A stretch of 64,000 nucleotides of DNA from an uncultured bacterium. GTDB taxonomy: Bacteria > Bacillota_I > Bacilli_A > RFN20 > CAG-826. The stretch is taken from NCBI GenBank assembly GCA_949285665.1, contig CASDYC010000001.1:5376-69375 (forward strand), given 5' to 3'. Below are positions 13,735 through 58,000 of this stretch, piece after piece. Below the pieces are notes generated by a model that saw only the letters and a list, made by a program, of their open reading frames with translations, was not told the origin of the DNA and searched no databases. The translations under genes were made by a program, and so were the position numbers. How positions within the stretch are numbered: the first letter of the stretch is position 1; every line of letters begins with the position of its first letter.

Positions 13735-13810
13735 GCCTACTTAGCTCAGTCGGTAGAGCAATCGGCTGTTAACCGATCGGTCGTGGGTTCGAGTCCCTCA
13801 GTAGGCGCCA
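13735..13810 (+). tRNA. tRNA-Asn (anticodon GTT)
   Basis: 76 nt. Acceptor GCCTACT/AGTAGGC, anticodon stem ATCGG/CCGAT, loop CTGTTAA, T-loop TTCGAGT, 3' GCCA. Confidence 0.85.
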
Positions 13811-13818
13811 TTCTTTGC

Positions 13819-13895
13819 GGCCCGTTGGAGAAGTGACTTAACTCACATGCCTTTCACGCATGCATTCATGGGTTTGAATCCCGTACGGGTCACCA
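13819..13895 (+). tRNA. tRNA-Glu (anticodon TTC)
   Basis: 77 nt. Acceptor GGCCCGT/ACGGGTC and the T-arm/3' end (GGGTTTGAATCCCGTACGGGTCACCA) closely resemble Bacillus-type tRNA-Glu. Anticodon stem CATGC/GCATG, loop CTTTCAC. 3-bp D-stem with an A13-A22 mismatch. Confidence 0.75.
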
Positions 13896-13960
13896 ATTTA
13901 AAAATTACAACGCCATTATTGCAAAATAATGGCGTTTTATATTTATTAATGTAATAAAAT

Positions 13961-14036
13961 GCCTACTTAGCTCAGCTGGTAGAGCAACTCATTCGTAATG
14001 AGTAGGTCAATGGTTCGAAACCGTTAGTAGGCACCA
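13961..14036 (+). tRNA. tRNA-Thr (anticodon CGT)
   Basis: 76 nt. The same acceptor and D arm as the tRNA-Asn copy. Anticodon stem ACTCA/TGAGT, loop TTCGTAA, T-loop TTCGAAA, 3' ACCA. Confidence 0.8.
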
Positions 14037-14047
14037 TAAAATATATC

Positions 14048-14075
14048 AATATCGGTTTTAAATCGATATTTTTTA
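14048..14075 (+). terminator. intrinsic terminator after the tRNA cluster
   Basis: AATATCG / CGATATT 7-bp stem with a 9-nt loop, followed by a T-run. Confidence 0.6.
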
Positions 14076-14119
14076 ATTTAAAATATTCTATGTGAAAAAC
14101 TTAAGAAAGAAGAAGTAAT

Positions 14120-14878
14120 ATGGCGCGTTTAGATATTTGTTTTTATAGTTGTATTTTAAAAAGAGATGTTAATTTTATTCTTATTTATCCAAGTCTTGCA
14201 TGTGGTAATGCCGGTGATTATAGAGAAAATTTTTATCAAGACAATAAAGAAAATAAATTTCCTTTATTGTTATTATTTCATGGATATGGTGGCAATTATA
14301 TGGCATATGAAAGATTTAGTAAAATAGATATGTACGCCGAAGAAAATAATATTGCTGTATGTATGATATCTGGAGAAAATAAATCATATTTAAATAAAGG
14401 AAGTAGTGATAACTTTTATGATTTTATTGAAACAGAATTAAAAGATTATTTATATGGTAACTTTAATATATCACCAAAGAAAGAAGATAATTTTATTGCT
14501 GGTTTATCAATGGGAGGATTCGGAGCATTATATCATGGCCTTTCAAATCCAGATGCGTATGCAGAAATTGGTGCTTTTTCTCCAGGAATTACTATGAGAA
14601 GAATAAATAAAAATAAAGAATCTACTTTAAAATCTTTAGTAATTAAAAATAAAAACAACTTACCTAGAATTTATATTTCTTGTGGAGAAAAAGATAATAT
14701 TGTAAAAGATGAAGTAGAAGATTTTATTTTATTTTTAAAAAAGAAGTATATTCATTTTGATTATAAGTGGTATAAAAATTATGATCATGAATGGAGATTA
14801 TGGGATAAAGAAATCGAAAATTTCATTAAAAAAATAAAAAGAACCGATTATTATAAAAATTCAAAAAAGAATGTTTAA
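14120..14878 (+). CDS. alpha/beta-hydrolase esterase
   Basis: LLLLFHGYGG oxyanion-region motif and the nucleophile elbow GLSMGGFGA (GxSxG). Confidence 0.6.
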   Translation: MARLDICFYSCILKRDVNFILIYPSLACGNAGDYRENFYQDNKENKFPLLLLFHGYGGNYMAYERFSKIDMYAEENNIAVCMISGENKSYLNKGSSDNFYDFIETELKDYLYGNFNISPKKEDNFIAGLSMGGFGALYHGLSNPDAYAEIGAFSPGITMRRINKNKESTLKSLVIKNKNNLPRIYISCGEKDNIVKDEVEDFILFLKKKYIHFDYKWYKNYDHEWRLWDKEIENFIKKIKRTDYYKNSKKNV

Positions 14879-14901
14879 TTTAAAAAATATTGAGGTTTTG
14901 C

Positions 14902-15534
14902 TTAGTTTTTTGAACTTAAACTCACAATTTTATTATTAAAAATAATTAAATAAACTAAATTATAAATTATAAAAACTAAGTTTAAACACATTAAAACGAG
15001 TGTTAATAATTTATAATTGATTAATGAAAATAAACTAATTAATACAATATTTGAAATTAATAATAATGGTAATAGTATAAATGAGGTAATATTAAACTTT
15101 TTATTTGAAACCTTTTTTAAATCAAGAAATTTTCCACATACTAATATAATATTAAATAAGAAACATAATATTGGAACTTGATACAATAAATCATTATTAT
15201 TAAATGCATAAGTAGCTATTAAAGAATAAATAGATAATATAAAAATGAGTAACAAATATGATATGTTATAAAATTTTAAAAAATTATAAGATAATATAAC
15301 TAACAAACATGAAACAATAAATAAACACATACTTACTTTTACAAAATTATCTAAATAAATTGTGCCAATAGCTACACCTAGTAAAATTATAATTACAAAC
15401 ATTAAAATAAGAGAACCATTAGGGTGAACTTTATTTGCAAAACGTTGCTTCCTTGTTAATTCAATTCTATCATCAATTTCTTTATCGCTATTTTCAGTTT
15501 CTTTTAAAATTTTATCTTTATTATTTTCTTCCAT
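14902..15534 (-). CDS. polytopic membrane protein, hypothetical
   Basis: 210 aa. Acidic N-terminus followed by 5-6 hydrophobic helices. Confidence 0.4.
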   Translation of the reverse strand: MEENNKDKILKETENSDKEIDDRIELTRKQRFANKVHPNGSLILMFVIIILLGVAIGTIYLDNFVKVSMCLFIVSCLLVILSYNFLKFYNISYLLLIFILSIYSLIATYAFNNNDLLYQVPILCFLFNIILVCGKFLDLKKVSNKKFNITSFILLPLLLISNIVLISLFSLINYKLLTLVLMCLNLVFIIYNLVYLIIFNNKIVSLSSKN

Positions 15535-15614
15535 ATGTAAAATTATAGTTTAAAATTGTTATCTTATAAATAAAAACTTTTATGAATTAAAGTTATATAG
15601 TAAAATAGTTTCGT

Positions 15615-15688
15615 GCATCATTAGTTCAATGGTAGAACCTTGGCTTCCCAAGCCAATGATACGAGTTCGATTCTCGCATGGTGCTCCA
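15615..15688 (+). tRNA. tRNA-Gly (anticodon CCC), the prophage integration target
   Basis: 74 nt. Acceptor GCATCAT/ATGGTGC (one G-U pair), D-stem GTTC/GAAC, anticodon stem TTGGC/GCCAA, loop TTCCCAA, T-loop TTCGATT with an A49-C65 mismatch, discriminator U, CCA. The 3' 18 nt are duplicated at attR. Confidence 0.75.
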
Positions 15689-16131: not shown

Positions 16132-17130
16132 ATGAAAAATGTGAATAAAACCATTAATTTAATGATTAATAAATCCAAAGCTAATTTTCTTTACGCTATC
16201 GAAACTTTTAATAAACCTAAATTAGAGACTAAATTAGAAATATTTTTATTTTTAATTTGTAATGCTTGGGAGCTGTTATTAAAATCAAAATTATTAAAAG
16301 AAAATAAAAGTATATTTTATAAAGATAAAAAACATAAAAGCAGAACCATTTCATTAAAAGAAGCGCTTTGTAAAGTAATTCCAGATGAAAGAGACAAAAT
16401 TAGAATAAATTTAGAAACAATAATTGGTTTTAGAAATTCTGCACAACATTTCATTATTCCAGAATATGCAAATTTTTTAAATGATATAATTATAGCCAAT
16501 GTTCTAAATTTTATTGATAAGTTTAAAGATTTTAATGGTGATAATTTAGTCGATTATTTTGACAATAATTTTATTAATATCTTTGTTCCTCATGAATATT
16601 CTAAAATTGAAATAGTTTCTAAATACGGGAAAGATGTTTACGACAATTTTATTAAAAAAGAAAAATATATAAATAACTTATTAGATAAAAGTTTAGATGT
16701 GGAAAATAACGTAGATAAAAGAATAGCTATTACTTACAATTTTAAAGCACAATTAGTTAAGCGAAATGCCGATTTAACAATTTCAAATAAATATGCAAAA
16801 GGGAAGAGCCTTTTCAATGCCGTTATGATTTCTAATGAAAACTATAAATCGGTATACCCTTATACTTGTAGTAAAATAATAAAATTGGTGAATGAACGAT
16901 GCCAAGAAGAAAATATTAGTTTTACTCCAGTGAGTGATAAAGCATCTAAAAATTTTAATAAACATACACTCCAAATTTATTTAAAAAAATATAACATTAA
17001 AAATAATAGAGAATTCAGTTTTGAATTATCGACTAATGATAAAAATAAAAGTTATTTATATTCAGTAAATCTTTTAGAGAAAATAATTTCTGATTTAAAA
17101 AGCGATCCAGATATTTTTATCAAAAAGTAG
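16132..17130 (+). CDS. hypothetical cargo protein (DUF3644-like N-terminal region; possible Abi/defence-type)
   Basis: 332 aa. N-terminal FLYAIETFNKPK...NAWELLLKSKLL...IIGFRNSAQH pattern, recalled as DUF3644-like. The gene sits between attL and int, the classic accessory-gene location. Confidence 0.35.
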   Translation: MKNVNKTINLMINKSKANFLYAIETFNKPKLETKLEIFLFLICNAWELLLKSKLLKENKSIFYKDKKHKSRTISLKEALCKVIPDERDKIRINLETIIGFRNSAQHFIIPEYANFLNDIIIANVLNFIDKFKDFNGDNLVDYFDNNFINIFVPHEYSKIEIVSKYGKDVYDNFIKKEKYINNLLDKSLDVENNVDKRIAITYNFKAQLVKRNADLTISNKYAKGKSLFNAVMISNENYKSVYPYTCSKIIKLVNERCQEENISFTPVSDKASKNFNKHTLQIYLKKYNIKNNREFSFELSTNDKNKSYLYSVNLLEKIISDLKSDPDIFIKK

Positions 17131-17253: not shown

Positions 17254-18360
17254 TTATACTAACTTATCAATTATGTCTTTATTTATATTTGGAAATAAAT
17301 GAGAATAAGTATCAAGAGTTTGTTGAGTTGAAGCATGTCTTAAGTGCTTTGATACAACTAAAATATTAACACCCTGGTTAATCATACGTGATGCCATTGA
17401 ATGCCGTAAACCGTGTTTTGTAATATGAGGAACTCCGGCAAGTTCAATATGAGCATCCATAACTCTTTTAATTGAAGTTCTTGAAGTGTGCTTAATAAAG
17501 AAAATATAATCATCTGGATTAGGGCAATTTTCTTCCTCATATATTTTTAACTCATCCATTAAGAAAGTTGGAAGTGTGACAGAGTTTGAAGAAGATGAGT
17601 TTTTAGTAGTTGCATCATGCCCATGCTTATCTAATTGGCGTTTAATAGAGATAGTTTTGTTTGCATAGTTTATATCTTTAAATTTAAGACCTAAAAGCTC
17701 TCCAATTCTTAAAGCGCCCCAGTAAGTAACTTCAAAAAGTAGTTTCCATTTTTTCTCATCTTCAGCAAAACTATTAATAAATTTGTTATATTCTTCCACA
17801 GTCCAAAATTGTAATTCTTTTTTAGGCTTTTTAGCTTCTTTAATTGGTTTTAAAAGAAGTTTGATTTTTCCACCCATTTCAAAAGAAAACATATCAAGAC
17901 TACAAGCATAGTCAATTACTGCTCTTAAAATAGCATAACCAAAATTAATCATTTTAGGGCATAAATCAACGCCTTGCATACTGACTTTATATTTATTTAC
18001 ACTTATTATAGATATCGCTTTATCAATAGGCTGTTTGATTTTAAAGTTAGGTTTTATATATTTGTTTATGAATAACTTTTGACTATATGCTGTTCCTTCT
18101 TTATTTGTTAGGTATTTTTCTTTAATATAGTCATTTAAGACATTATCAAGAGAATTTGCAACTCGACCATGGTAGTTTATTATTCTTTTCTTTTTATCTT
18201 CTTCAACAATTTCATCTTCAAGAAGTTTAAGTCTTTTTTTGCCAAACTCCGTAGTCCAGTTTTTATTTCTTATTTTAACTTTGGTAGTAGAACCATCGTA
18301 ATTATTAATATAGTATTGAATATAATATTGTTTTCTTTTTTTATCTAATATAATTGCCAT
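17254..18360 (-). CDS. int: tyrosine integrase (phage integrase family)
   Basis: 368 aa. C-terminal catalytic region HGLRHSMASRM...LRHASTQQTLDTYSHL with the R...HxxR...Y signature, plus ALRIGELLGL. Adjacent to attL. Confidence 0.85.
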   Translation of the reverse strand: MAIILDKKRKQYYIQYYINNYDGSTTKVKIRNKNWTTEFGKKRLKLLEDEIVEEDKKKRIINYHGRVANSLDNVLNDYIKEKYLTNKEGTAYSQKLFINKYIKPNFKIKQPIDKAISIISVNKYKVSMQGVDLCPKMINFGYAILRAVIDYACSLDMFSFEMGGKIKLLLKPIKEAKKPKKELQFWTVEEYNKFINSFAEDEKKWKLLFEVTYWGALRIGELLGLKFKDINYANKTISIKRQLDKHGHDATTKNSSSSNSVTLPTFLMDELKIYEEENCPNPDDYIFFIKHTSRTSIKRVMDAHIELAGVPHITKHGLRHSMASRMINQGVNILVVSKHLRHASTQQTLDTYSHLFPNINKDIIDKLV

Positions 18361-25709: not shown

Positions 25710-26414
25710 ATGGACAAAAGATTTAATTTTATTCATTCAAACGCTAGAAAGATTTGGTATATAAATGGCCAAAAATTTGAAAGTGATAAAGGAAGTAATA
25801 ATGGCAAACAAAAAGCCATTACATACGCACGTGAGCATTTACTGGATGAAAAAGACATTAAGAAATTTGATAGTCTTATGGAATTTAATCGTTATTTATT
25901 TTTAAAATCCAGGGAAGAAAAGGGAGAGATTAGTTATTTTAAAGATCATTTTGTTTTTCCGCTTTTAAAAGCATTTAAAAACGCAGATGGAATAGAGCAT
26001 GATGAATTACTTTATGAAGCTGATTTTTACTATTATGACAAAGTTTTAAAGAAGTTTATCGTAGAAGATGTTAAAGGTAATTTAGAGGATGTTTTTAGAG
26101 TTAAATGGAAGATATTTGATTTAATATACCTAAAAAGAAATTTAGCAATTAAATGCGTGCGCATGCGTGCACGTAAAGATCCATTAGATTCTGATAGTTG
26201 GTATTATTTTAATGAATTTGAAAAGCCTCAAAAAAATGTGGAAAAGTTAAGAGAAAAAAATAAGAAGTTAGAAAGTGAATTAAAGAAACTTGAAGCAGAG
26301 AAAAAGAAAGAAATGCGTGAGCGTGCACGCATGAAGGAACTTAAAAACAAAGAAAAACTAACAAGCTCTGAAAAGAAAAGATTAGAGGAATTAAAAAAGA
26401 AATATGAAAGTTAA
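25710..26414 (+). CDS. hypothetical protein with a C-terminal K/E-rich coiled coil
   Basis: 234-aa ORF. Contains the first alternating GC-rich tracts (KCVRMRARK, MRERARMKE). Confidence 0.35.
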   Translation: MDKRFNFIHSNARKIWYINGQKFESDKGSNNGKQKAITYAREHLLDEKDIKKFDSLMEFNRYLFLKSREEKGEISYFKDHFVFPLLKAFKNADGIEHDELLYEADFYYYDKVLKKFIVEDVKGNLEDVFRVKWKIFDLIYLKRNLAIKCVRMRARKDPLDSDSWYYFNEFEKPQKNVEKLREKNKKLESELKKLEAEKKKEMRERARMKELKNKEKLTSSEKKRLEELKKKYES

Positions 26415-27198
26415 AGAATATGTTGAAAAAAATAAACTAACAACTTTGTATTTAATTGAGGATGATTATTTAGATATATTATCATCAAAGGACATTTATG
26501 ATGCATATAAAGAGAGAGAAATTACACGTTTTAGGACATATGGAGATTGTGGAATTGCAATAAGTTGTTTAAAAACTTATGATAAAATTACTAATATGTC
26601 ATATGTTTTAATGTATAAAAATAAAGATGGAATTGTTGCAGTTGGAGATAAAGCAGTAGCTAGAGTATTAAATTATGAACCTTATAAATACGAAGTTTTA
26701 AATTTAGATGCTGTTAAAGTGATGAATAATAAAAAGTTTGTAATAGGAATACTAGGAACTGGTGTAATTGATTATAAAAATAAATGCGCCTATATATCAG
26801 AGTTAGTAAATAAATTAATTAAAAAATGTAAAAGTGTTAAGTTATTTATTAAATCTTTTAATGCAATTTATAAAAAAGCATGTCTTCCAAAATGTGTTGA
26901 AAGTGTGGAATATCGTTTTTTTATAGCAGATAAAAACTTGATGTATGATGTTAGATTTAAAGATTTAAAATGCACGATCTATACAAAAGAAGAAGGGCTT
27001 TTATGTAATGTTCCAAGTTGTTATCAAGATGTAGATGTTTTTGAATTTGATCCTCTTTATATTATTTCAAGAAAATTTCAATATGCAATCGCACGCACGC
27101 ATGAGAAACAAAAATTAGAATTTGATAATACATTTTGTGTTAGTAAAGAAAGTGACTGCATTATTTTGAGGTTTGAAGGTGAAAAGTATGAAAGTTAA
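26404..27198 (+). CDS. hypothetical protein, paralog A (internal HslV/Ntn-hydrolase-like segment)
   Basis: Shares MSY(V/I)L...KDGIVAVGDK, FV(I/V)G(I/F)(L/V)GT and ...THE(K/N)QK...NTF(C/S)VSKESD blocks with the next ORF. Confidence 0.4.
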   Translation: MKVKEYVEKNKLTTLYLIEDDYLDILSSKDIYDAYKEREITRFRTYGDCGIAISCLKTYDKITNMSYVLMYKNKDGIVAVGDKAVARVLNYEPYKYEVLNLDAVKVMNNKKFVIGILGTGVIDYKNKCAYISELVNKLIKKCKSVKLFIKSFNAIYKKACLPKCVESVEYRFFIADKNLMYDVRFKDLKCTIYTKEEGLLCNVPSCYQDVDVFEFDPLYIISRKFQYAIARTHEKQKLEFDNTFCVSKESDCIILRFEGEKYES

Positions 27199-28006
27199 AG
27201 AAATAGTTGAAGAATGTAAATCAATGAAGGCTGAAGTATTTTTAATAGAAGGCAATATTGACGTTTTAAAAAATAAAAAATTGTATGAAAGAATAAAAAA
27301 TAAAGAAATTTTATATATAGATGCCGATATTCTTTATGATAATAAATTTTACATAAGCATTTCTTATGACTATGGTAAAATGTATAAAATGTCTTATATT
27401 TTAATTAAAAGAACGAAAGATGGTATTGTTGCAGTTGGTGATAAGGTGATGTCTTGTGTATCAAGTTTTTACCCGTTAAGAAGATATAAAACACTTTCAT
27501 TAGATGCTACTAAGGTTTTTAAAAATGAATATTTTGTAGTTGGTTTTGTAGGAACTGCTTTTGTTGATATTGACAACAAAGATATAAGTATTGAAGACGT
27601 CATTAAAAAATTATTAAAAGAGATAATAACAATTAAAGATTTTGTTGAAGAATTTAAAAAAATTTATAACAATATGAAGAGGTTTATCTATTTCAAAAAT
27701 GTTGAATATTCATTTTATTTAGTTGACAAAAATAGTGCGTGTGTATATGAGTTTAAACAACAAAAAAGCGATGAAAACACAAAGGCTATTGAAGATGGTT
27801 TTTTATTTAATACACCACTTTATCGTGAAGAACCAAAAATTAATGATACTGACAATTTAGAAGAAGTTGCTGAAAAGTTTAAAAACGCAATCTCACATAC
27901 ACATGAAAACCAAAAAAGAGAATTAGGGAATACTTTTAGTGTAAGTAAAGAATCTGATGTTGTAATTTTAAAGTTTAAAGGAGAAAAAAATGATAAAACA
28001 AATTAA
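27173..28006 (+). CDS. hypothetical protein, paralog B (internal HslV/Ntn-hydrolase-like segment)
   Basis: Tandem paralog of 26404-27198 (MSYILIKRTKDGIVAVGDK, KVFKNEYFVVGFVGTAFVD). Confidence 0.4.
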   Translation: MKVKSMKVKEIVEECKSMKAEVFLIEGNIDVLKNKKLYERIKNKEILYIDADILYDNKFYISISYDYGKMYKMSYILIKRTKDGIVAVGDKVMSCVSSFYPLRRYKTLSLDATKVFKNEYFVVGFVGTAFVDIDNKDISIEDVIKKLLKEIITIKDFVEEFKKIYNNMKRFIYFKNVEYSFYLVDKNSACVYEFKQQKSDENTKAIEDGFLFNTPLYREEPKINDTDNLEEVAEKFKNAISHTHENQKRELGNTFSVSKESDVVILKFKGEKNDKTN

Positions 28007-29159: not shown

Positions 29160-29190
29160 AAAAAAGCACTCAACTAAGAGTGCTTTTTCT
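29160..29190. terminator. bidirectional intrinsic terminator between convergent operons
   Basis: A-run, then GCACTC aactaa GAGTGC, then T5. A second hairpin lies at about 29090-29115. Confidence 0.6.
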
Positions 29191-29322: not shown

Positions 29323-29994
29323 TTATAAGTTGTCATATGCTTGATCCATTTCTTTAAAGTTAAATAATTTAGTATTTAACATAACTGGTTGTTGTAAGTA
29401 ATTTAAGTTTGAATAATAGCAACCGCCAACTTTATAAAACTTGTTAATTAGTGATACGTAACCATCTTTTGTCATAATTGCTAACTTGTTATATTCGCCA
29501 ATTAAGTTTTTTATTAGTTGCATTTTGTTATATCGTTTATCAAAGTATAAATCATTACCGATAATCAAAGACAAGTAATCTTTAATAAAAGTCATTGTAT
29601 CGTTATAATTTACTTTTTGATTATAGCTACTTGTTAAATGAATGATTCCATTATGAGCTATTCCAATATTAGCCGTTGTTTTTAACTCACGCATACGTGC
29701 GTAATCGCTACAAAGTGGGTATGGATGGCACAACTCTTTTTTTGTTCCGCCCTGGGTTGATATTCTAAAGTGTAAGACAAGTGGTATTTCTTTAATTTTT
29801 AAGTTGTTATCACTTAATAACTTTTTAATATCTTTAAGTAAATCATCTAGCTTATCAAATCCCTTGTGGATGATTACTTGATTATTTACTGGGGCCATAT
29901 AGCCGGCCCCATCCCCGTTTCTTTCAATACATTTTTTTAATGTTTCAATACTTGGTAAATCTTGGTTTACTGGTTTATAGATAATTACACACAT
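29323..29994 (-). CDS. class-II glutamine amidotransferase-like Ntn hydrolase (YafJ/GATase_4-like)
   Basis: Starts MCVIIY, the Cys2 N-terminal nucleophile typical of GAT-II. 223 aa. Translationally coupled to the upstream amidoligase-like gene (ATG/TAA overlap at 29994). Confidence 0.55.
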   Translation of the reverse strand: MCVIIYKPVNQDLPSIETLKKCIERNGDGAGYMAPVNNQVIIHKGFDKLDDLLKDIKKLLSDNNLKIKEIPLVLHFRISTQGGTKKELCHPYPLCSDYARMRELKTTANIGIAHNGIIHLTSSYNQKVNYNDTMTFIKDYLSLIIGNDLYFDKRYNKMQLIKNLIGEYNKLAIMTKDGYVSLINKFYKVGGCYYSNLNYLQQPVMLNTKLFNFKEMDQAYDNL

Positions 29995-31244
29995 TATAAT
30001 TGTTCCCCTTCCTTTTCGCTTGCGTATGTGCGCATGAATAAGCCTTGTTTTCTAAAATAATTAATTACTTTTAAATCTACATTTTTAAGCATTTTTGATA
30101 AGCAATAAATCTTGTTAAATGGCACATTTTTAAGATTTTCAGCAATACCAGCGAATAAAAGAAAGCAGTTTTTCATCCATTGAGCATCTGCAACGCTTCT
30201 AAATATTCTTATTTCAAAAGTTGCTTTTGAGTTAATTAAACAACGATTGTGGTCTGAGTTTAAATAATCGGTTGCATTACAAGATAAATCAAGTCTTTTT
30301 ATTGCTTCGTGGTAGTCTTTAATTTCATCGTATGTATAAAACTTACAATAACGCATTGAGTTTTCATCTCTTTTTGAAAGTTTTATAAAGTCTTCCTTGT
30401 ATATAGTCATAAAGTAAGCAAGTTTTAAAAAGTTTATCGCTTGTTCTTTTGAGTTATCACCAAAGACAAGTTTTGATATGTGTAAATGAATACCAGCGCT
30501 TTTAACGTTGTCATCATGACCGGTTTTTTTCATAAAATCAGCGATGATATTAAAATCTAATTGCTCTAAATATTTTCTTGAAAATACTTGACTAATCATC
30601 TCAAAGCCATAAGTTAAAGAGCCATCCATTTCAAATTTAAAATGTGTTTTTCTAGTTTTTCCATTTAAGTTATAAAAATCATCGGTTACTCTTGCATAAT
30701 AGCGGTTGTCTTTTCTAACTCTTAAACGGCTATTGTTAAAATTATCGATTTCAATTTCAAAGCCGTAGCCCTTAAAGTTGCTTTCATCCATTGTCTCGTT
30801 GTCTAGTTTAAAATATCTAACCTTGCTATCTCTTGCATCATTGCCCCAACCGTTATAATCAGAGTGATAACCGTTAATTACATACAAGTTTTTATATTCT
30901 TGTTCAAAGCAAGTATTGCAATATCTTGTGTCATTGCCCATGTAATGAGATTGAGTTTGTAAGTCTTGTGGTGCAATCCATTTTCCGCATTTATCACATT
31001 TTCTAAAACCAATATCACGCATTGCACGCTCAAGCGTGTCTATATTATCGCTTGCGTATATAAGCGTTTCAGTCTCTAATGTAAGTCTTTCATGTTGGTT
31101 TGTGTAAGTAGTAGTATCTAAATCAATAACTATTGTGTTGCTATTAACAAATAAGCTTATTAATGCTTCTTGGTCGCTTGTTACTAATTGAGCAACGTAT
31201 GATGCGTAAGTTTTTTTAATAGTAATAACATTGTATTTTTTCAT
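29994..31244 (-). CDS. amidoligase-like protein (PF12224-like GS-fold) with an N-terminal Cys4 zinc ribbon
   Basis: Motifs GYGFEIEI (E.E strand), DGSLTYGFE (DGS) and SAGIHLHIS (GxHxH), recalled from the putative-amidoligase family. CDKCGKW...CNTCF zinc ribbon. AAGGGGA RBS. Confidence 0.45.
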   Translation of the reverse strand: MKKYNVITIKKTYASYVAQLVTSDQEALISLFVNSNTIVIDLDTTTYTNQHERLTLETETLIYASDNIDTLERAMRDIGFRKCDKCGKWIAPQDLQTQSHYMGNDTRYCNTCFEQEYKNLYVINGYHSDYNGWGNDARDSKVRYFKLDNETMDESNFKGYGFEIEIDNFNNSRLRVRKDNRYYARVTDDFYNLNGKTRKTHFKFEMDGSLTYGFEMISQVFSRKYLEQLDFNIIADFMKKTGHDDNVKSAGIHLHISKLVFGDNSKEQAINFLKLAYFMTIYKEDFIKLSKRDENSMRYCKFYTYDEIKDYHEAIKRLDLSCNATDYLNSDHNRCLINSKATFEIRIFRSVADAQWMKNCFLLFAGIAENLKNVPFNKIYCLSKMLKNVDLKVINYFRKQGLFMRTYASEKEGEQL

Positions 31245-31371: not shown

Positions 31372-31554
31372 TTATTGCTTATTGACGTCACCTTCGATTA
31401 ATTTAGCCAAATAAGCACTTTTTGATGGTTGACTTTCAATTTTATCTATTAAGTGTTGTTGTGTATCTTTTCTAAGCATTAATCGATAATATTTATAAGT
31501 CTTTTTCTTGTATTTATAATTGCTTTTATTATCTTTTCTTGGCGTTGTTTTCAC
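31372..31554 (-). CDS. small basic ribbon-helix-helix-like protein (paralog 1 of 3), GTG start
   Basis: KTYKYYRLMLRKD (beta strand), TQQHLIDKIES (helix) and SKSAYLAKLIEGD (helix) follow the Arc/MetJ/CopG pattern. Preceded by GGAAGGGGG. Directly upstream of the amidoligase gene. Confidence 0.4.
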   Translation of the reverse strand: MKTTPRKDNKSNYKYKKKTYKYYRLMLRKDTQQHLIDKIESQPSKSAYLAKLIEGDVNKQ

Positions 31555-32396: not shown

Positions 32397-32567
32397 TTAT
32401 TTTTTTAAATCGTTTTGAATTAGCGATAAAATATAAGCGTTTTTTGATTTAACACTTTCTAATTTTTCTATTATATCGCTCTGGGTATCTTTTCTAACTT
32501 GTAATAAATAACGCTTGTATGTCTTTTTTTTATATTTATTACTTGCGATTGTTTGCCTTGTTCCCAT
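32397..32567 (-). CDS. small basic RHH-like protein (paralog 3), ATG start with AAGGGGGA RBS
   Basis: 56 aa: MGTRQTIASNKYKKKTYKRYLLQVRKDTQSDIIEKLESVKSKNAYILSLIQNDLKK. Below the 60-aa cutoff of the ORF track. Same beta-alpha-alpha pattern as the other two. Confidence 0.4.
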   Translation of the reverse strand: MGTRQTIASNKYKKKTYKRYLLQVRKDTQSDIIEKLESVKSKNAYILSLIQNDLKK

Positions 32568-52093: not shown

Positions 52094-55000
52094 ATGGCTG
52101 ATAGAAATACTTATTTAAAAATGATGCTTAATAATGGAAAAACTCAAAATTCGAGCATTCCATATGTTAAGGATTATGTTGCAAATTTGGGCTTAAACGA
52201 TGAAGATATCGCTGATTTTCTTATTAAAAATAATGAAATAAACGCAAAACAAATATTAACTGAAAGTCAACAACAACTCCAAACACAAGATCAATCATTT
52301 AATCAAGAAAAAGAAGAAGATAAAAACTGGTGGCAAAATATCGTTGATGGTATGGCTTCAATTGGTAATTCTGTTATTGATGGCATTATGAACTTTGCAG
52401 ATGATATTGGAGACTTCTTTATATCAGTTGGCGATTGGATGATGGGTGGCAATAATGAATGGGCTGATGAAGCAATAAATTATGATTGGCAAGCACAAGT
52501 GACAAATGCTTTAAATTTTATGCAACCATTACTTCAAGTAGTAGATGTTGTTCAAAACTATAATGATTGGGCACAAAGTATTTGGCAAGGTGGAGATACT
52601 TCAAGAGATTATTTAAATGGTATTGTAGAAGGAACTTGGACAGATAATGATTTTGGTAAATTTTTAAGAGATGCTGCAAATTCAATTGGTTATATGCTTC
52701 CTACAATTGCAGTTGGTGTATTAACTGGTGGATCTAGTGCCGCAGCACTTTCAACTATGGGAGTAGTTGCTGGTATGGGACAAACTTCTGATGCTTATCA
52801 AGAAAATAATAATATGGGACTTGCTTTATTAAGTGGTATTGTAGCAGGTGGAATTGAAGCTGGAACTGAAGCAATAGGTGGCTTTATTCCAGGCAGTAAA
52901 ACAATAACAAAAACAACAATTAAAGCTCTTGGAAAACAAATGTTAGAAGAAGGTGCTGAAGAAGTTGTAAGTGGATTTTTACAACCAGTTGTCGATAGTA
53001 TTGCAAAAGGAAATGCAGAACCTTGGTTTGATGAAAATGGACAATTTGTATATTTTTCTCCAGAATTTTGGTTTACTGGGGAAGATAGCGTTGCGAGACA
53101 AGGAGCGTTAGGTGCTTTTACTGGTGGAGTTTTTGGTGGTGCAAATATTGTTCAAAATAGAATTAAATATGGGAAAGCTGGACAACAATTTGGTCAAGCA
53201 TATCAAGAATTTATCGAAACTAGAAATGAAGCCAGAGAATTAAAAAGTAAAAACAAAAGCACAGAAGCAATAGAACAAAAATTAGGAGAAGCAAGTGTTT
53301 ATTTAGCAGAAAAAGCAAATGAGTTAAAAACAGCAATTGAAAACGGAACTATTAGCAATAGACAAGTTAAAAACCTTGGAGAAATGTTACATAATCCAAC
53401 TTCTAATAGAAATTTATTAGCAGAAAATTTAAACGAAAATATAAATAAATTAAATAATATTACAAATTTAAATGAACATATATTAAGAGATTTAGTAAGT
53501 GATTTTAATATTTCAAATAATTCAAACTTTAAATTAGATGTAGTTGATGATTTAAAAGATGTAAATGGTAATAGTGTAAATGCTCAATTTAATGAAAATA
53601 CAAATACTATAAGTCTTAATTCATCTATTTTAGATAATAATGCATATTCAGTATTAGGTCACGAATTATTAGCTCATGGTGTTTTAGATAATATATTAAC
53701 TAACTCAAATACAAGAAGTATAGTTTTTAATTTGGTTAATAATGACACTGAATGGGTTAATCAAAATAAACAAACAATTTTAAAAGAATATAACACAACT
53801 GAAAACTCTGAAATATATAAAAGTGAATTAGTTGCTAATTATTTACAAGAAAAATTAATTAATAATAATTCTTTAAGTGATTTAGAGCTATTAGCAAGCA
53901 ATAAAGGTGTTTTTAAAGAATTTATAAATTCTGCTAAATTAATTATGGAAAACACTAATTCTAGTAAATTAAAACAACAAATTAGAAAAGCAGTTAGACA
54001 ATTTGGAAAAAGCAATTATAGAGTTAATTCGATTGTTTTAAAAATGCTTAATGATAAAAAATTAAACAACAAAGAACAAGAATATTACGACCAAAATAAA
54101 ACATTATTTGATACATATTTTAGCATTATTAATGGTGGATTACTTCAAGAAACAAATGGTGAACTAAAAATTGCTTATAGTAAAGATTTAAACGATGTAG
54201 TAGATGAATTAATTGAAAATAGCGATAAAATTGAAACACGTATCGAAAGTGATAATCAAGGTGAATATGTTGTTTATCAAAATCTAGATTTAAACAACTT
54301 TAATAGAAACGAAAGAAGAATAATATTAAGAAATTATTTAAAACAAAAATTCACAAGTGATTATATTTTCCATATTTCAAGCGATAATACAGAAGCAACC
54401 TTAACAAGTGATGGTCGAGGTAAAATGTCAGATCATGGTTCAAGTGCAGCTGCAAGCGCTAAAATTGAGTTAGAAAATATTTTAAAAATCGCTAAAAAAA
54501 TAAAAGTAGAAGATAGTTATAAATCTAATGAAGATTATACTTATACAACATATAATTCAAGAATATTAATTGGCGAAACAATGTATTCTTTTGATATTGA
54601 TTTAAAAAATTTAAAAGATGGTAATAGAATATATGATATTAAAAATGAAAAAAGCACTCCTGTCAATGGCAGTCTTACAAATGCAGACCTACACCCATCA
54701 GGCAGTGCTTTTCTTAATGATAGTATCTCACAAGAAAATAATTCTGTCAATAGTATTGATAATTTAAACGAAAGGGGTAATAATAATTTATATGAAAGAA
54801 CAGATGAGTTTAGAAGATTACAAGAAGAAAGTAGAAAATTACTTGAAAAATTCCAAAGTGGAGAACAAACTTATAAACAATTGGATGAAAGTATACGAGA
54901 AAGATATACAAGATGCATTCAACAAGCACTGGAAAGCGGAAGAAATAGCAATTCCTATGATTTTAGGTTATTAAAATCTTCTAAAAATACCAAATTTAAC

Positions 55001-58000
55001 ATAACAAATAATATAAATAATAATTTATTTCATGATGCATTTGAAACTATAAAACCTTATATACAACAAAATGAATTAGTTGATTTACACGATGATTATA
55101 CTAATTGTCAATGTTTTTTAAGTTCCGATGGATTACAAGGTTTTGCTATTGAACCAAATGGAAATTTAATTAGTGTTTTTAATGCTGATACAAATAAGAG
55201 AGGATTTGTTGAAGCAATAAGTAATTATGTAAAAGAACATGGTGCTACACATTTAGATTGTTATGGCTATTTAGCAAATTATTATAATAAAGTTTTAGGT
55301 TTTAAAACTGCATCTATAATGGATTATAACATGGAGTATGACCATCACAATATTGCAAGTAATTATAACAATCCACAAGTTGCATTTATGGTTAATACAA
55401 ATGAAAATGTTGAAACAAAACACTTTAATAAAGACCAATATGATGAAGCAGTAGAGTATCAACAATCATTTATTAATAAAGAAAAAATTAAATATTCTAG
55501 GAAATTGAATAATTCACAATTATCTAATGAAGAAAAAGAAAATTTAGCAAAAAAATCATATAATAATTTAAAGAAATTTTCAGTAAACGAAAAGAGAATA
55601 TTGAATAATAATTATAATACAACGTTGAATTCTTTTGACGAAGTAAAACAATATATTAAAGACGCAATTAATGGGAAAGATATTTCAAGGTATGGATTAT
55701 TAGGCAAAATAAGTAAAAATTTGAGCGATAAAATCTTTGAATATACAAATTTAAATTTAAAAGATTATAATTTAGCATTTAATAAAGATAATTTAAAACA
55801 TATATATAAAAGACATGTCGAAAATTTAGCTAATCAAATAAAAATTAATATAGATGACATATATTTATTACCATACTTATTAGAAAATTCAAATGATATA
55901 ACAATTGAAAAAATGAAAAATGGTGATAAATATATTAAATTTATTACAAATTTTAGTGATGAATATATAATTTTTACTTTAAGTTCTAATAAGAATAAAA
56001 GATTAACATTAAAAACTATTTATATAAGAAAAAAAGGAGCTGGCTTCCCAACGGGCAATGCTGATTACCTTAGTAATCCCCCAGCCCTTACGTCCAAAAC
56101 GGATGATGGGGCTTCGTCTCCTTTTACTACTATTAGTTTTACACAAAAAAGTTTTGGTGTCAATAATTTAGATAAAAATACTGCAGTTCAAAAACACAAT
56201 AATAAGTCAAATAATAATACTAAAAACGAAGTTGACATTAATGTTTTAGAAACCAATAAAGCAAATAAAGTTAAAGAAAATGCTAATAAACAATTATGGC
56301 AAAAAGTTATTAGTTTTAAAGATGCAAAAATTGCTTATAATTCTTTAATTGATTTTATTAATAATTCACTTAACATAGATTTAACAGTTAAAAATAAAGA
56401 AACAAAAATTAGAGCCTTATTTGATAGTTATAATGTAAATGAAATAAATAATACTTTAAACGATTTTTCAAAAGACTTATTAAATTCAAAAGTTTATCAA
56501 GGCGTTGAAACGACTTTAAGAGATGTTTTTGAAGCAAACGATTTTGACACTGTCAAACTTGAAAATGCTATGACTAAATCTCTTAAACATGTTTTAGATA
56601 ATAAAGCAAAAACAAGTGAAACAACAAAAATATTTGATAATTTACAATCTCAATTACTTAAAGCAGTTGATTTAATTAATAGATATAAAAATAGAGCAAG
56701 ACAATTTGCTAGTCTTTATAAAAAAGTTGAAAACATTAAAAAGCAATTAAAAATAGAAAATAATAACACCAAATTAACAGATATTAAACTTGATGAAGTT
56801 AACTTACTTAAATATTTAGTAAGCGGAAGAGTATTTACAAAAGATGGTGGAATATCTGGAACTTGGAGAACTAGATTTAATGATCTAATGAAAGAAGATG
56901 TTAATTATTTTTCATCTTTAAGAAATAGTGTTTTTAATGAAAATGGTGAACTTAATAAAGCAATTGAAACTTTTGAATATTTAGGAAATTCATTTGATTT
57001 AAGAAGAAAACAACAAAGAACTTTAAATATAGAAGAAGCTGATGCTTTAATTCAAGCATTTAATAGTGTTTTAAGTGCAATGAACGACTATAAAAACGGC
57101 TATTATGAAAAAGTAGAAAAATTATCAAATGATTTATATTCAGAGCAAAGCGAAATTATAGAAGCAAATAAAAATAAAAGTTTTACATTGTCAAAAATTA
57201 ATCAAATAATATCAAGAGTATCAAGCCCACTTACTAATTTAGCTCTTTATTTTGGTGGTGAAAACACGCACATGTATAAAGAATTAATTGGTAATATTGA
57301 AAATAATTATGAAAGATATTTATTTGACCAATCCGCTTTAAATACTTCGTTAATTAAGAAATTAGAAGGTATTTCTAAAAAAGGTATATTAACTAATCAA
57401 ACTAAGGTTATAAAGAATTTTAAGGGTTTAAAACGCTTAAATAAATGGCATTTATATTCGATGTGGTTAAACTTAAAGGCTGAAAGTAATTTAGCAAGAG
57501 TTAGCGAAAAAGGATTTACACTAAAAGATAAAGTTGGCCAAGTTCAACATATTAATTATGATACAGATTTATTAAGCGATATTGAAAGTCATTTAGATGG
57601 AGTAGAAATTGAGCAACTTCAAGCTTTACTTGATTTTTATAATGTTGAAATTAAAGACTATATTAAAAAGGCTCAAACTAAAATTGATGGATTTAGTAAT
57701 GTTTTAAGTTCAACATATTACCCACAAATTACAAGTAAGAGTGAACTTAAAGGAAATTTAACTGGTGATGAACCATTATTTTTAAGAGATAATGGACAAT
57801 TTAAAAACTTAAAAGCTAGAACAGGAGTTATTACAAGTTTAGATTTAGTAAATCCTCTTGAGCTAGTGAGAAGTTATATTGATAGTGCATCAAGATATTC
57901 AAATCTTACACAAGCTGAAAGATTACTTAATAGAACATTAAATAAAAATATTATTGTAAATAAAGAAACTACATCACTAAGAAAATTATTTAAAGAAAGA

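Follow-up and report, generated by a model that had tools for sequence, protein, structure and literature searches.

The 64,000-nucleotide stretch of DNA analysed here, referred to as the window, comes from an uncultured bacterium of the Bacilli_A lineage CAG-826 (contig CASDYC010000001.1 of assembly GCA_949285665.1) and contains a prophage. In the early region of this prophage, immediately after a DUF1064 gene, lie two open reading frames (ORFs), ORF A and ORF B, whose products each combine an N-terminal extension with a domain predicted to have the fold of the proteasome-like N-terminal nucleophile (Ntn) hydrolases. The domain opens at a conserved Met-Ser junction, the Ser of which falls on the position of the proteasomal nucleophile Thr1, and the same junction and catalytic residues recur in a small, highly divergent family. 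The extension is translated together with the domain, and its later removal is the likeliest way in which the Ser would be exposed.

Results

Tandem paralogs and their family

ORF A and ORF B align from end to end with 40% identity (E = 8e-54), which bears out their description as tandem paralogs in the first-pass annotation of this DNA. Both carry exactly the motifs quoted there, MSYVLMYKNKDGIVAVGDK followed after 21 residues by KVMNNKKFVIGILGTG in ORF A, and MSYILIKRTKDGIVAVGDK followed after 22 residues by KVFKNEYFVVGFVGTA in ORF B; the extension, put at roughly 70 amino acids (aa), measures 64 aa in ORF A and 67 aa in ORF B before Met-Ser. ORF B was listed from a TTG at 27173, which yields 277 aa; its real start is almost certainly the ATG at 27188, which yields 272 aa, because this codon is preceded by the Shine-Dalgarno sequence GAAGGTGA at −8.5 kcal/mol and all database homologs begin there.

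The close family comprises 12 clusters among 5.8 billion proteins. When the family profile was run exhaustively with HMMER against 1.84 billion cluster representatives, 16 proteins were retrieved, 12 of them distant (E values from 5e-9 to 5e-4). All 12 distant relatives align only from about profile position 57-68 on, that is, from the Met-Ser region, and share a common pattern: (N)M-S, a hydrophobic strand, x-DG(I/L)V-x-x-(G/A/S)D(S/K)(K/R), then (Q)KVF. In a 20-sequence alignment, in which distant members have 16-26% identity to ORF A, the only invariant residues are Ser66, Gly76, Asp82 and Lys105 (ORF A numbering). Because the Ser, Gly, Asp and Lys of the quoted motifs are thus the sole invariant columns in 20 divergent sequences, the motifs are evidently not the product of chance. 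Counted from the Ser, the Gly is at position 11 and the Asp at position 17, identical to the numbering of yeast beta5. Met is nearly invariant at position −1 (19 of 20 sequences), the exception being P0015 with a GTG-encoded Val. The domain after Met-Ser has a constant length of 190-205 aa in full-length members. Gly118 of ORF A, a candidate for the oxyanion-hole Gly47 of proteasomes, is invariant in the 13 close-family sequences, replaced in three distant members and otherwise mostly kept, and a GSG-like motif, FGGDSKYF, occurs in some distant members.

The family is rare, resides on mobile elements and is seen almost only in metagenomes, and no domain library covers it. Nine of 10 members looked up are present in metagenome assemblies only, and P0001 also in an NCBI record that is probably a metagenome-assembled genome (MAG); none of the 10 has a name or a listed accession. 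No relative turned up when species-representative genomes and IMG/VR viral contigs were scanned with family patterns; the wider alignment was too divergent to yield any patterns. Searches by blastn and tblastn against 50,697 GenBank phage records gave no match. A literature search returned nothing specific on functional work on phage proteasome homologs.

Predicted fold

With a diverse domain-only alignment (ORF A 65-264), AlphaFold2 modelled the domain at a predicted local distance difference test score (pLDDT) of 91.5 and a predicted template-modelling score (pTM) of 0.88, all five models reaching at least 89.8 in pLDDT. The order of secondary-structure elements is b-b-b-b-b(-b-b)-a-a-b-b-b-b-a-b, with helices at residues 67-77 and 81-94 of the domain model and an S3/S4 insertion that forms a short beta-hairpin (residues 21-36). 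A Foldseek search of the PDB with this model returned solely Ntn hydrolases. These include 20S beta subunits (8adn_J, 2.8e-5; yeast beta5 5cz8_K, 8.5e-5, template-modelling (TM) score 0.58), archaeal connectases (6zw0_A, 6.8e-5; also 8wkd_A and 6zvz) and, lower in the ranking, PurO, bile-salt hydrolases and isopenicillin-N acyltransferase, all of them Ntn folds. A replicate, in which the full-length protein was modelled from close relatives only (pLDDT 67), gave 98 matches at E<=1e-3, all from the proteasome family; the top match was T. brucei HslV (4hnz_A, 2.7e-5), and 20S subunits and Anbu were also found. Among viral models (BFVD) the best match was 'Proteasome beta type-2 subunit [Siphoviridae sp.]' (3.7e-6, TM-score 0.62); uncharacterised proteins from Gordonia, Vibrio and Erwinia phages and from jumbo phages ranked next, and many phage proteins in this collection have the same fold.

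Relative to proteasome beta subunits, the S3/S4 hairpin of the model is extended, H1 is short, a further hairpin follows S5, and a single long helix takes the place of H3 and H4. By these predictions the fold of the domain is established as proteasome-like Ntn, and the TM-scores of 0.5-0.62 place the window proteins in a divergent branch of this fold. The earlier proposal of an Ntn-hydrolase segment beginning at the conserved Met-Ser is upheld by both AlphaFold models, which retrieve only proteasome-family or other Ntn structures; the domain model has the alpha-beta-beta-alpha sandwich, with one helix of the second pair missing or merged.

Catalytic register

Scans of ORF A and ORF B against Pfam, PHROGs, NCBIfam and PADLOC gave no matches, and PDB searches with phmmer, hmmsearch and the close-family profile found nothing. 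The register of the catalytic residues is seen in an HMMER alignment to yeast beta5 (chain 4qv0_K), which sets profile positions 6-60 on residues 5-52 and pairs GiVavgDsks with GIIVAVDSRAT and kKVF with KKVI; it places Ser on Thr1, Asp on Asp17 and, with a 7-residue insertion, Lys on Lys33, and since its E value is only about 1, it shows register and not homology by itself. An hhalign comparison with a five-sequence proteasome/HslV alignment, which may contain errors, produced the same register with 72.7% probability and P = 3.2e-5 over just 59 columns. This result is relied on only because it coincides with that of the HMMER alignment, in which an actual PDB chain was matched.

The resemblance to HslV on which the first-pass annotation had drawn is, as seen by eye, not significant: hhalign of the close family against E. 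coli HslV gave 0.2% probability over 14 columns for the segment in question. Only with the deeper profile (the P value given above) and the predicted structure does it become significant, and short of such sampling the by-eye alignment would have had to be discarded. One distant member matches phrog_1040, 'peptidase HslV family', at 8e-4, and one of 14 family members reaches PF00227 at E = 0.045; ORF A and ORF B do not match PF00227, and its gathering score is unreached. The Ser directly precedes the first strand, where proteasome-like Ntn hydrolases have their nucleophile, and the other two members of their triad have equivalents in Asp82, exactly 16 residues past the Ser, and Lys105, both invariant in 20/20 sequences. 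In the model, Ser, Asp and Lys would be adjacent in space.

N-terminal extension

The number of residues before Met-Ser varies widely across the family (0, 7, 14, 17, 21, 22, 30, 35, 41, 64, 67, 87, 94 and 109), and extensions are unrelated between lineages. Within the window, conservation between ORF A and ORF B includes the extension. For the ORF A extension against its ortholog in a related prophage (L015), omega is 0.09; values range over 0.09-0.46 for the extension and 0.27-0.38 for the domain. The ORF A extension was modelled, at low confidence, as a small alpha/beta unit.

No Shine-Dalgarno sequence precedes the internal ATGs of the two genes, which score +0.6 (26596) and −2.9 kcal/mol (27389) as compared with a median of −8.25 kcal/mol for 18 gene starts in the same region. 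This absence, together with purifying selection on the extension, shows that the window proteins are made as precursors with a translated extension. For the window genes, an internal start that exposes the Ser, one of the two routes offered by the first-pass annotation, is disfavoured on the same two grounds, which leaves propeptide removal as the better guess; post-translational removal of the extension would be the likeliest and most economical route to activation. The upstream starts at L002 and L013 have very strong Shine-Dalgarno sequences (−10 to −14.5), and so the extensions there are real too.

Some relatives begin at the junction itself. P0018 starts with ATG-AGC seven bases past an AGGAGG and has no extension, and P0027 was called from Met-Ser. 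The GTG codon of P0015 has AAGGA upstream. In P0018, methionine aminopeptidase would presumably expose the Ser, as with the Met-Thr of HslV. Along with the 0-109 aa range of the extensions, the start of P0018 lends comparative support to the view that the Ser has to become N-terminal.

Ntn chemistry requires the free alpha-amine of the nucleophile itself, and the Thr1Ser mutant of yeast beta5 autoprocesses and is active, with lower efficiency (PMC4792962). The Met at position −1 of the window family may either be needed for autolysis, or its codon may double as an alternative start.

Comparison with known proteasome-like systems

The window proteins share with HslV the alpha-beta-beta-alpha Ntn fold, with 4hnz_A as the top PDB match of the full-length model, a nucleophile that follows Met, and equivalents of Asp17 and Lys33; activation through cleavage of an N-terminal extension has been described for a Gram-positive HslV, that of S. 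aureus (PMC7468587). A Ser nucleophile has been reported for B. subtilis CodW (Kang 2001, cited in PMC7468587). The window proteins differ from HslV in having Ser for Thr, an extension of 64-67 aa as against 0-8, no GSG motif and no adjacent hslU, and in the model they show a 7-residue S3/S4 insertion, a hairpin after S5 and a single helix for H3/H4. An assignment to HslV proper was rejected because the proteins match no HslV, Pfam or NCBIfam model and no HslU-like partner lies nearby.

Subunits of the 20S beta type provide the best structural matches of the domain model (8adn_J, 5cz8_K) and the same register (Ser = Thr1, Gly11, Asp17, Lys33), and the N-terminal propeptide of variable length that precedes the beta nucleophile has a parallel in the variable extension of the window family. 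However, residue −1 of the family is Met, not Gly, and Ser is the predicted nucleophile; by contrast, 'all proteasomes strictly employ threonine' (PMC4792962). Identity to 20S beta subunits is only 10-16%, PF00227 is unreached, and an alpha-subunit partner is lacking.

In 2021, Fuchs, Alva and Lupas described upwards of 20 families of proteasome-like proteins, among them PPH, AAH and CPH, which are spread by phages, and the FC1-FC5 clusters of Firmicutes; these families have a Thr1/Ser1-Asp17-Lys33 triad, are of unknown function and have no dedicated AAA+ partner (PMC8665760). The window family is also small, divergent, phage-spread and triad-bearing, without a dedicated AAA+ partner. It differs in its extensions of 0-109 aa, propeptides outside beta subunits and HslV being absent from that survey (PMC8665760). 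Since its members are nearly all metagenome-only, they were likely absent from the nr set used there. PPH, at about 140 aa and without helix H2 (PMC8665760), was rejected as an identity because the domain of the window family is about 200 aa long (190-205 aa) and has H2 in the model.

Connectase (MJ0548) is among the best PDB matches, and both it and the window model have an insertion at the S3/S4 site. It lacks H1 and H2, has a two-helix S3/S4 lid, uses Thr1 and is confined to archaeal methanogens (PMC8665760). The window model has both helices of the first pair and a beta-hairpin in place of the helical lid, and the connectase class was rejected on these grounds. Our verdict is that ORF A and ORF B represent a new, divergent family that falls into a class already known, the proteasome homologs carried by phages, FC1-FC5 having been compared by description only. 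As judged from sequence, the family is distinguished by a fixed Ser as predicted nucleophile, a near-invariant Met(−1) and genuine N-terminal extensions.

Variability of the slot and neighbours of distant members

The slot between the DUF1064 gene and ORF C is kept in related prophages, and its contents differ. The window has A plus B, and L003-L006 have a B-type gene alone. In L015 (6001-6801) the slot holds a single hybrid gene that is A-like over about 690 nt (0.83-1.0 identity) and B-like over the final 130 nt or so (0.92-0.98), consistent with the product expected of unequal recombination in an A-B tandem. An unrelated element of 41% G+C (L002:10001-12759) carries three tandem paralogs of 246, 248 and 291 aa, with extensions of 41, 45 and 94 aa and a very strong Shine-Dalgarno sequence at the upstream start of each; tandem arrays thus arose more than once.

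Around distant members, the regions L012:2243-4790, L007:1371-2739 and L013:8001-11028 were inspected. P0023 lies directly downstream of a KAP-family P-loop NTPase gene, P0015 adjoins NERD and RNase T genes, P0024 (L013) follows the gene of a 2864-aa protein and lies two genes upstream of an AAA/AAA_5 ATPase gene, and P0018 precedes a membrane protein gene. The AAA+, KAP NTPase and NERD neighbours occur at one locus each, and no neighbour is common to the loci. A search for a partner gene found the genes after P0018 and P0024 unrelated to each other and to ORF C, and no relative of ORF C follows the Ntn gene at L013. The prophage region around ORF A and ORF B contains no AAA+ gene; only the distant locus L013 has an AAA gene. 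The variability of the slot and the context, which resembles mobile elements and defence islands, suggest a role in phage-host conflict.

Discussion

Proposed mechanism

The following reading offers the explanation that we favour. The products of ORF A and ORF B are divergent Ntn hydrolases of the proteasome-like branch, to which HslV, 20S beta, Anbu and connectase also belong. The catalytic domain of about 200 aa would open at Ser66 in ORF A and at Ser69 in ORF B; this Ser would stand in for Thr1, supported by the invariant counterparts of Asp17 and Lys33. The Ser would be active only as the first residue, its free alpha-amino group serving catalysis. In the window proteins the extension is translated and would then be removed, most likely by intramolecular autolysis at the Met-Ser bond with the Ser/Lys/Asp machinery, as in the maturation of beta subunits; some relatives would be translated from Met-Ser and have the Met taken off by methionine aminopeptidase. 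Once mature, the enzyme would most likely hydrolyse peptide bonds, with proteins or peptides as substrates, during the early phase of the phage cycle. The slot appears to be diversifying, with single copy, recombinant hybrid and tandem pair, and with tandem arrays elsewhere too; this, along with the KAP-NTPase and NERD neighbours of distant members, would point to a role in phage-host conflict. Taken as a whole, from Ser hydrolase and removed extension to peptidase activity and conflict role, we consider this account probable, with appreciable room for error. The parts of it that are shown are the paralogy, the fold, the conservation and register of the catalytic residues, and the variability and translation of the extension; its removal, the peptidase activity and the biological role are inferred.

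Several observations weigh against it. The H3/H4 pair is modelled as one long helix, and the TM-scores are modest. Sequence-only searches stay below significance, the PDB hmmsearch giving E ~1 for beta5, and no Pfam or NCBIfam model reaches its threshold. Because the C-terminal half cannot be aligned to proteasomes, no equivalent of the Ser129/Asp166/Ser169 network behind the proteasomal Thr1 could be recognised in the window proteins; the GSG motif, apparently kept by some distant members, is missing from them too. As residue −1 is a near-invariant Met and not the Gly of beta subunits, the chemistry of autolysis is not simply to be assumed, and as propeptides were reported only in beta subunits and HslV by Fuchs et al. 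(PMC8665760), a propeptide in the window family would be unusual.

Alternative explanations

Exposure of the Ser could also come about by internal initiation at the conserved Met codon, an aminopeptidase exposing Ser1 and the full-length protein being a separate regulatory or inactive isoform. An ATG precedes the Ser in all members except P0015, whose GTG is also a start codon, and GTG is an uncommon Val codon in AT-rich DNA. P0018 truly begins at the Met codon, with its AGGAGG, and the called start of P0027 is the same; in distant members the codon is preceded by purine-rich tracts of modest strength (−5.3 to −6.4 kcal/mol, about the 10th percentile of the background), and Met(−1) is otherwise unexplained. 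These tracts could, however, reflect the coding of a linker rich in Lys, Glu, Gly and Arg, and in the window both the poor scores of the internal ATGs against the regional median and the conservation and purifying selection of the extension speak against internal initiation, which we regard as unlikely. What the exposed Ser does is a separate matter. The proteins could be connectase-like transpeptidases or ligases, with the same N-terminal nucleophile and an acyl-enzyme resolved by an amine rather than water. In favour of this, three connectase structures rank with the best PDB matches, the family carries an S3/S4 insertion in the place of the connectase specificity element (PMC8665760), and the lack of a conserved AAA+ partner is consistent with a non-degradative enzyme. 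But 20S beta subunits and HslV score equally well or better, and connectase is devoid of the first helix pair and carries two helices as its insertion, where the model has the helices at 67-77 and 81-94 and a short hairpin. Fold similarity cannot tell hydrolysis from ligation, and with the helices against it we consider such an activity improbable.

A reading without any processing would see the proteins as non-catalytic scaffolds, like proteasome alpha subunits, or would have the Ser act in a non-Ntn manner. The extension is, after all, long, conserved and under selection, the Gly(−1) of autoprocessing beta subunits is absent, and the network of the proteasomal Ser129, Asp166 and Ser169 has no identifiable counterpart. 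Yet the four columns that stay invariant at 16-26% identity are those of the triad and a turn Gly, the pattern of an active enzyme, and some homologs have no extension at all; we give this reading little credence. The first-pass annotation had also hinted at a tagging and proteolysis theme involving the neighbouring class-II glutamine amidotransferase (GAT-II)-like and amidoligase genes, so that the Ntn pair and these genes would make up a system for peptide tagging and tag-dependent proteolysis. The genes are indeed less than 3 kb apart, both in the window and in L003, L004 and L015, which are close relatives, and the amidoligase is a real Pfam match. However, the two sets form convergent units with ORF C, a small membrane ORF and a strong terminator between them, their co-occurrence is confined to closely related prophages and thus carries little information, and neither amidoligase nor GAT-II genes were found within about 1.5-10 kb of the Ntn gene at L002, L007, L008, L012 and L013. 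The GAT-II assignment is, moreover, weak, and a joint system appears very improbable.

Going beyond the favoured account, one may speculate, with low expectation of being right in every part, that the family consists of zymogen-type Ser Ntn proteases in which Met-Ser serves both as autoprocessing site and as alternative start. The extensions would then be interchangeable sensor or inhibitor modules that hold the enzyme in check until a trigger in phage-host conflict, the tandems and hybrids would reflect arms-race diversification of specificity, and the family would be a natural proteasome-like lineage with Ser fixed.

Significance

To our knowledge, proteasome-like proteins outside the classical proteasome and HslV are numerous, almost none of them has a known function, and the phage-borne ones are especially obscure. 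The family described here is, on present evidence, one more uncharacterised family in a known class, to which it adds a lineage with three unusual features, namely a Ser as predicted nucleophile, Met(−1) and real, variable extensions. Small genes in a defined slot, with natural single, hybrid and tandem variants, make a tractable system in which to ask how Ntn autoprocessing proceeds in the absence of Gly(−1), what makes Thr preferable to Ser and how a phage benefits from having a proteasome-like enzyme. Should proteins of host defence or regulation prove to be cut by the enzyme, phages would have a counter-measure of a new type.

Genomic setting

Coordinates of the two genes, their catalytic positions and their neighbours are collected in Table 1.

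Table 1. Features of the Ntn gene pair and adjoining genes (coordinates within the window)
Feature	Coordinates	Strand	Basis
DUF1064 / Holliday-junction-resolvase-like gene	25710..26414	+	Pfam PF06356 E=3e-10, phrog_190 E=2e-17
ORF A, 264 aa: extension (1-64) and predicted proteasome-like Ntn domain (65-264)	26404..27198	+	ORF list, paralogy, model
N-terminal extension of ORF A (64 aa); putative propeptide or additional domain	26404..26595	+	
ORF A Met65-Ser66 junction (ATG TCA); Ser66 predicted nucleophile, Thr1 equivalent	26596..26601	+	
ORF A Asp82 (GAT), proteasome Asp17 equivalent; position 17 from Ser66	26647..26649	+	invariant column
ORF A Lys105, proteasome Lys33 equivalent, offset by 7-residue S3/S4 insertion	26716..26718	+	invariant column
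ORF B, 272 aa: extension (1-67) and predicted proteasome-like Ntn domain	27188..28006	+	
ORF B Met68-Ser69 junction (ATG TCT); Ser69 predicted nucleophile	27389..27394	+	sequence and column conservation
ORF B Asp85 (GAT), Asp17 equivalent	27440..27442	+	invariant column
ORF B Lys109, Lys33 equivalent	27512..27514	+	invariant column, position counted from translation
ORF C, 257 aa	27990..28763	+	no Pfam, PHROG, NCBIfam or PADLOC match
Terminator, 11-bp stem	29161..29188	.	terminator scan
GAT-II-like gene	29323-29994	-	Pfam GATase_4 E=0.056 (weak)
Amidoligase_2 gene	29994-31244	-	Pfam Amidoligase_2 E=1e-6

The window has a G+C content of about 26%. The integrase gene of the prophage (17254-18360, minus strand) is followed by an early region on the plus strand with genes for a YqaJ exonuclease (19778), RecT (21202), DUF3846 (24444) and the DUF1064 protein; large, unannotated late genes begin at about 33.7 kb. 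The DUF1064 gene forms the upstream border of the variable slot and is the same neighbour in L003-L006 and L015, close relatives in which ORF C consistently lies 3' of the Ntn gene. The terminator divides the plus-strand operon of ORF A, ORF B, ORF C and the membrane ORF from the convergent GAT-II/amidoligase unit, whose two genes abut and are conserved as a pair in related prophages. The GAT-II-like ORF encodes 223 aa and opens with Met-Cys (MCVIIYK...), which fits a class-II glutamine amidotransferase, an Ntn enzyme with Cys1.

The HtpG gene that flanks the prophage is 98% identical in the representative MAG of the host species (CALVNF01, L009), and a pattern scan of the species-representative genome collection found no relative of the Ntn gene. 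From these two observations the prophage, or at least the Ntn gene, seems to be variable within the host species. Between a tRNA cluster (Asn, Glu, Thr and Gly; 13735-15688) and the integrase gene, positions 16132-17130 on the plus strand encode a protein with DUF3644 and an EC042_2821-like, restriction-endonuclease-like part, which may be an island or defence gene at the edge of the attachment site. The late region includes an ORF of 2585 aa (52094-59851, plus strand); the late genes tested (34041, 36189, 38373 and 39119) have zero Pfam matches, so that the virion module is poorly covered by current families. In the gene-poor interval of 31.3-33.6 kb between the early and late modules, two small ORFs on the minus strand, of 60 aa (31372-31554) and 56 aa (32397-32567), have no Pfam match and are clearly alike; they share the pattern ...KYKKKTYK.Y.L..RKDTQ...I.K.ES..SK.AY...LI..D... 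and might be duplicated small regulators.

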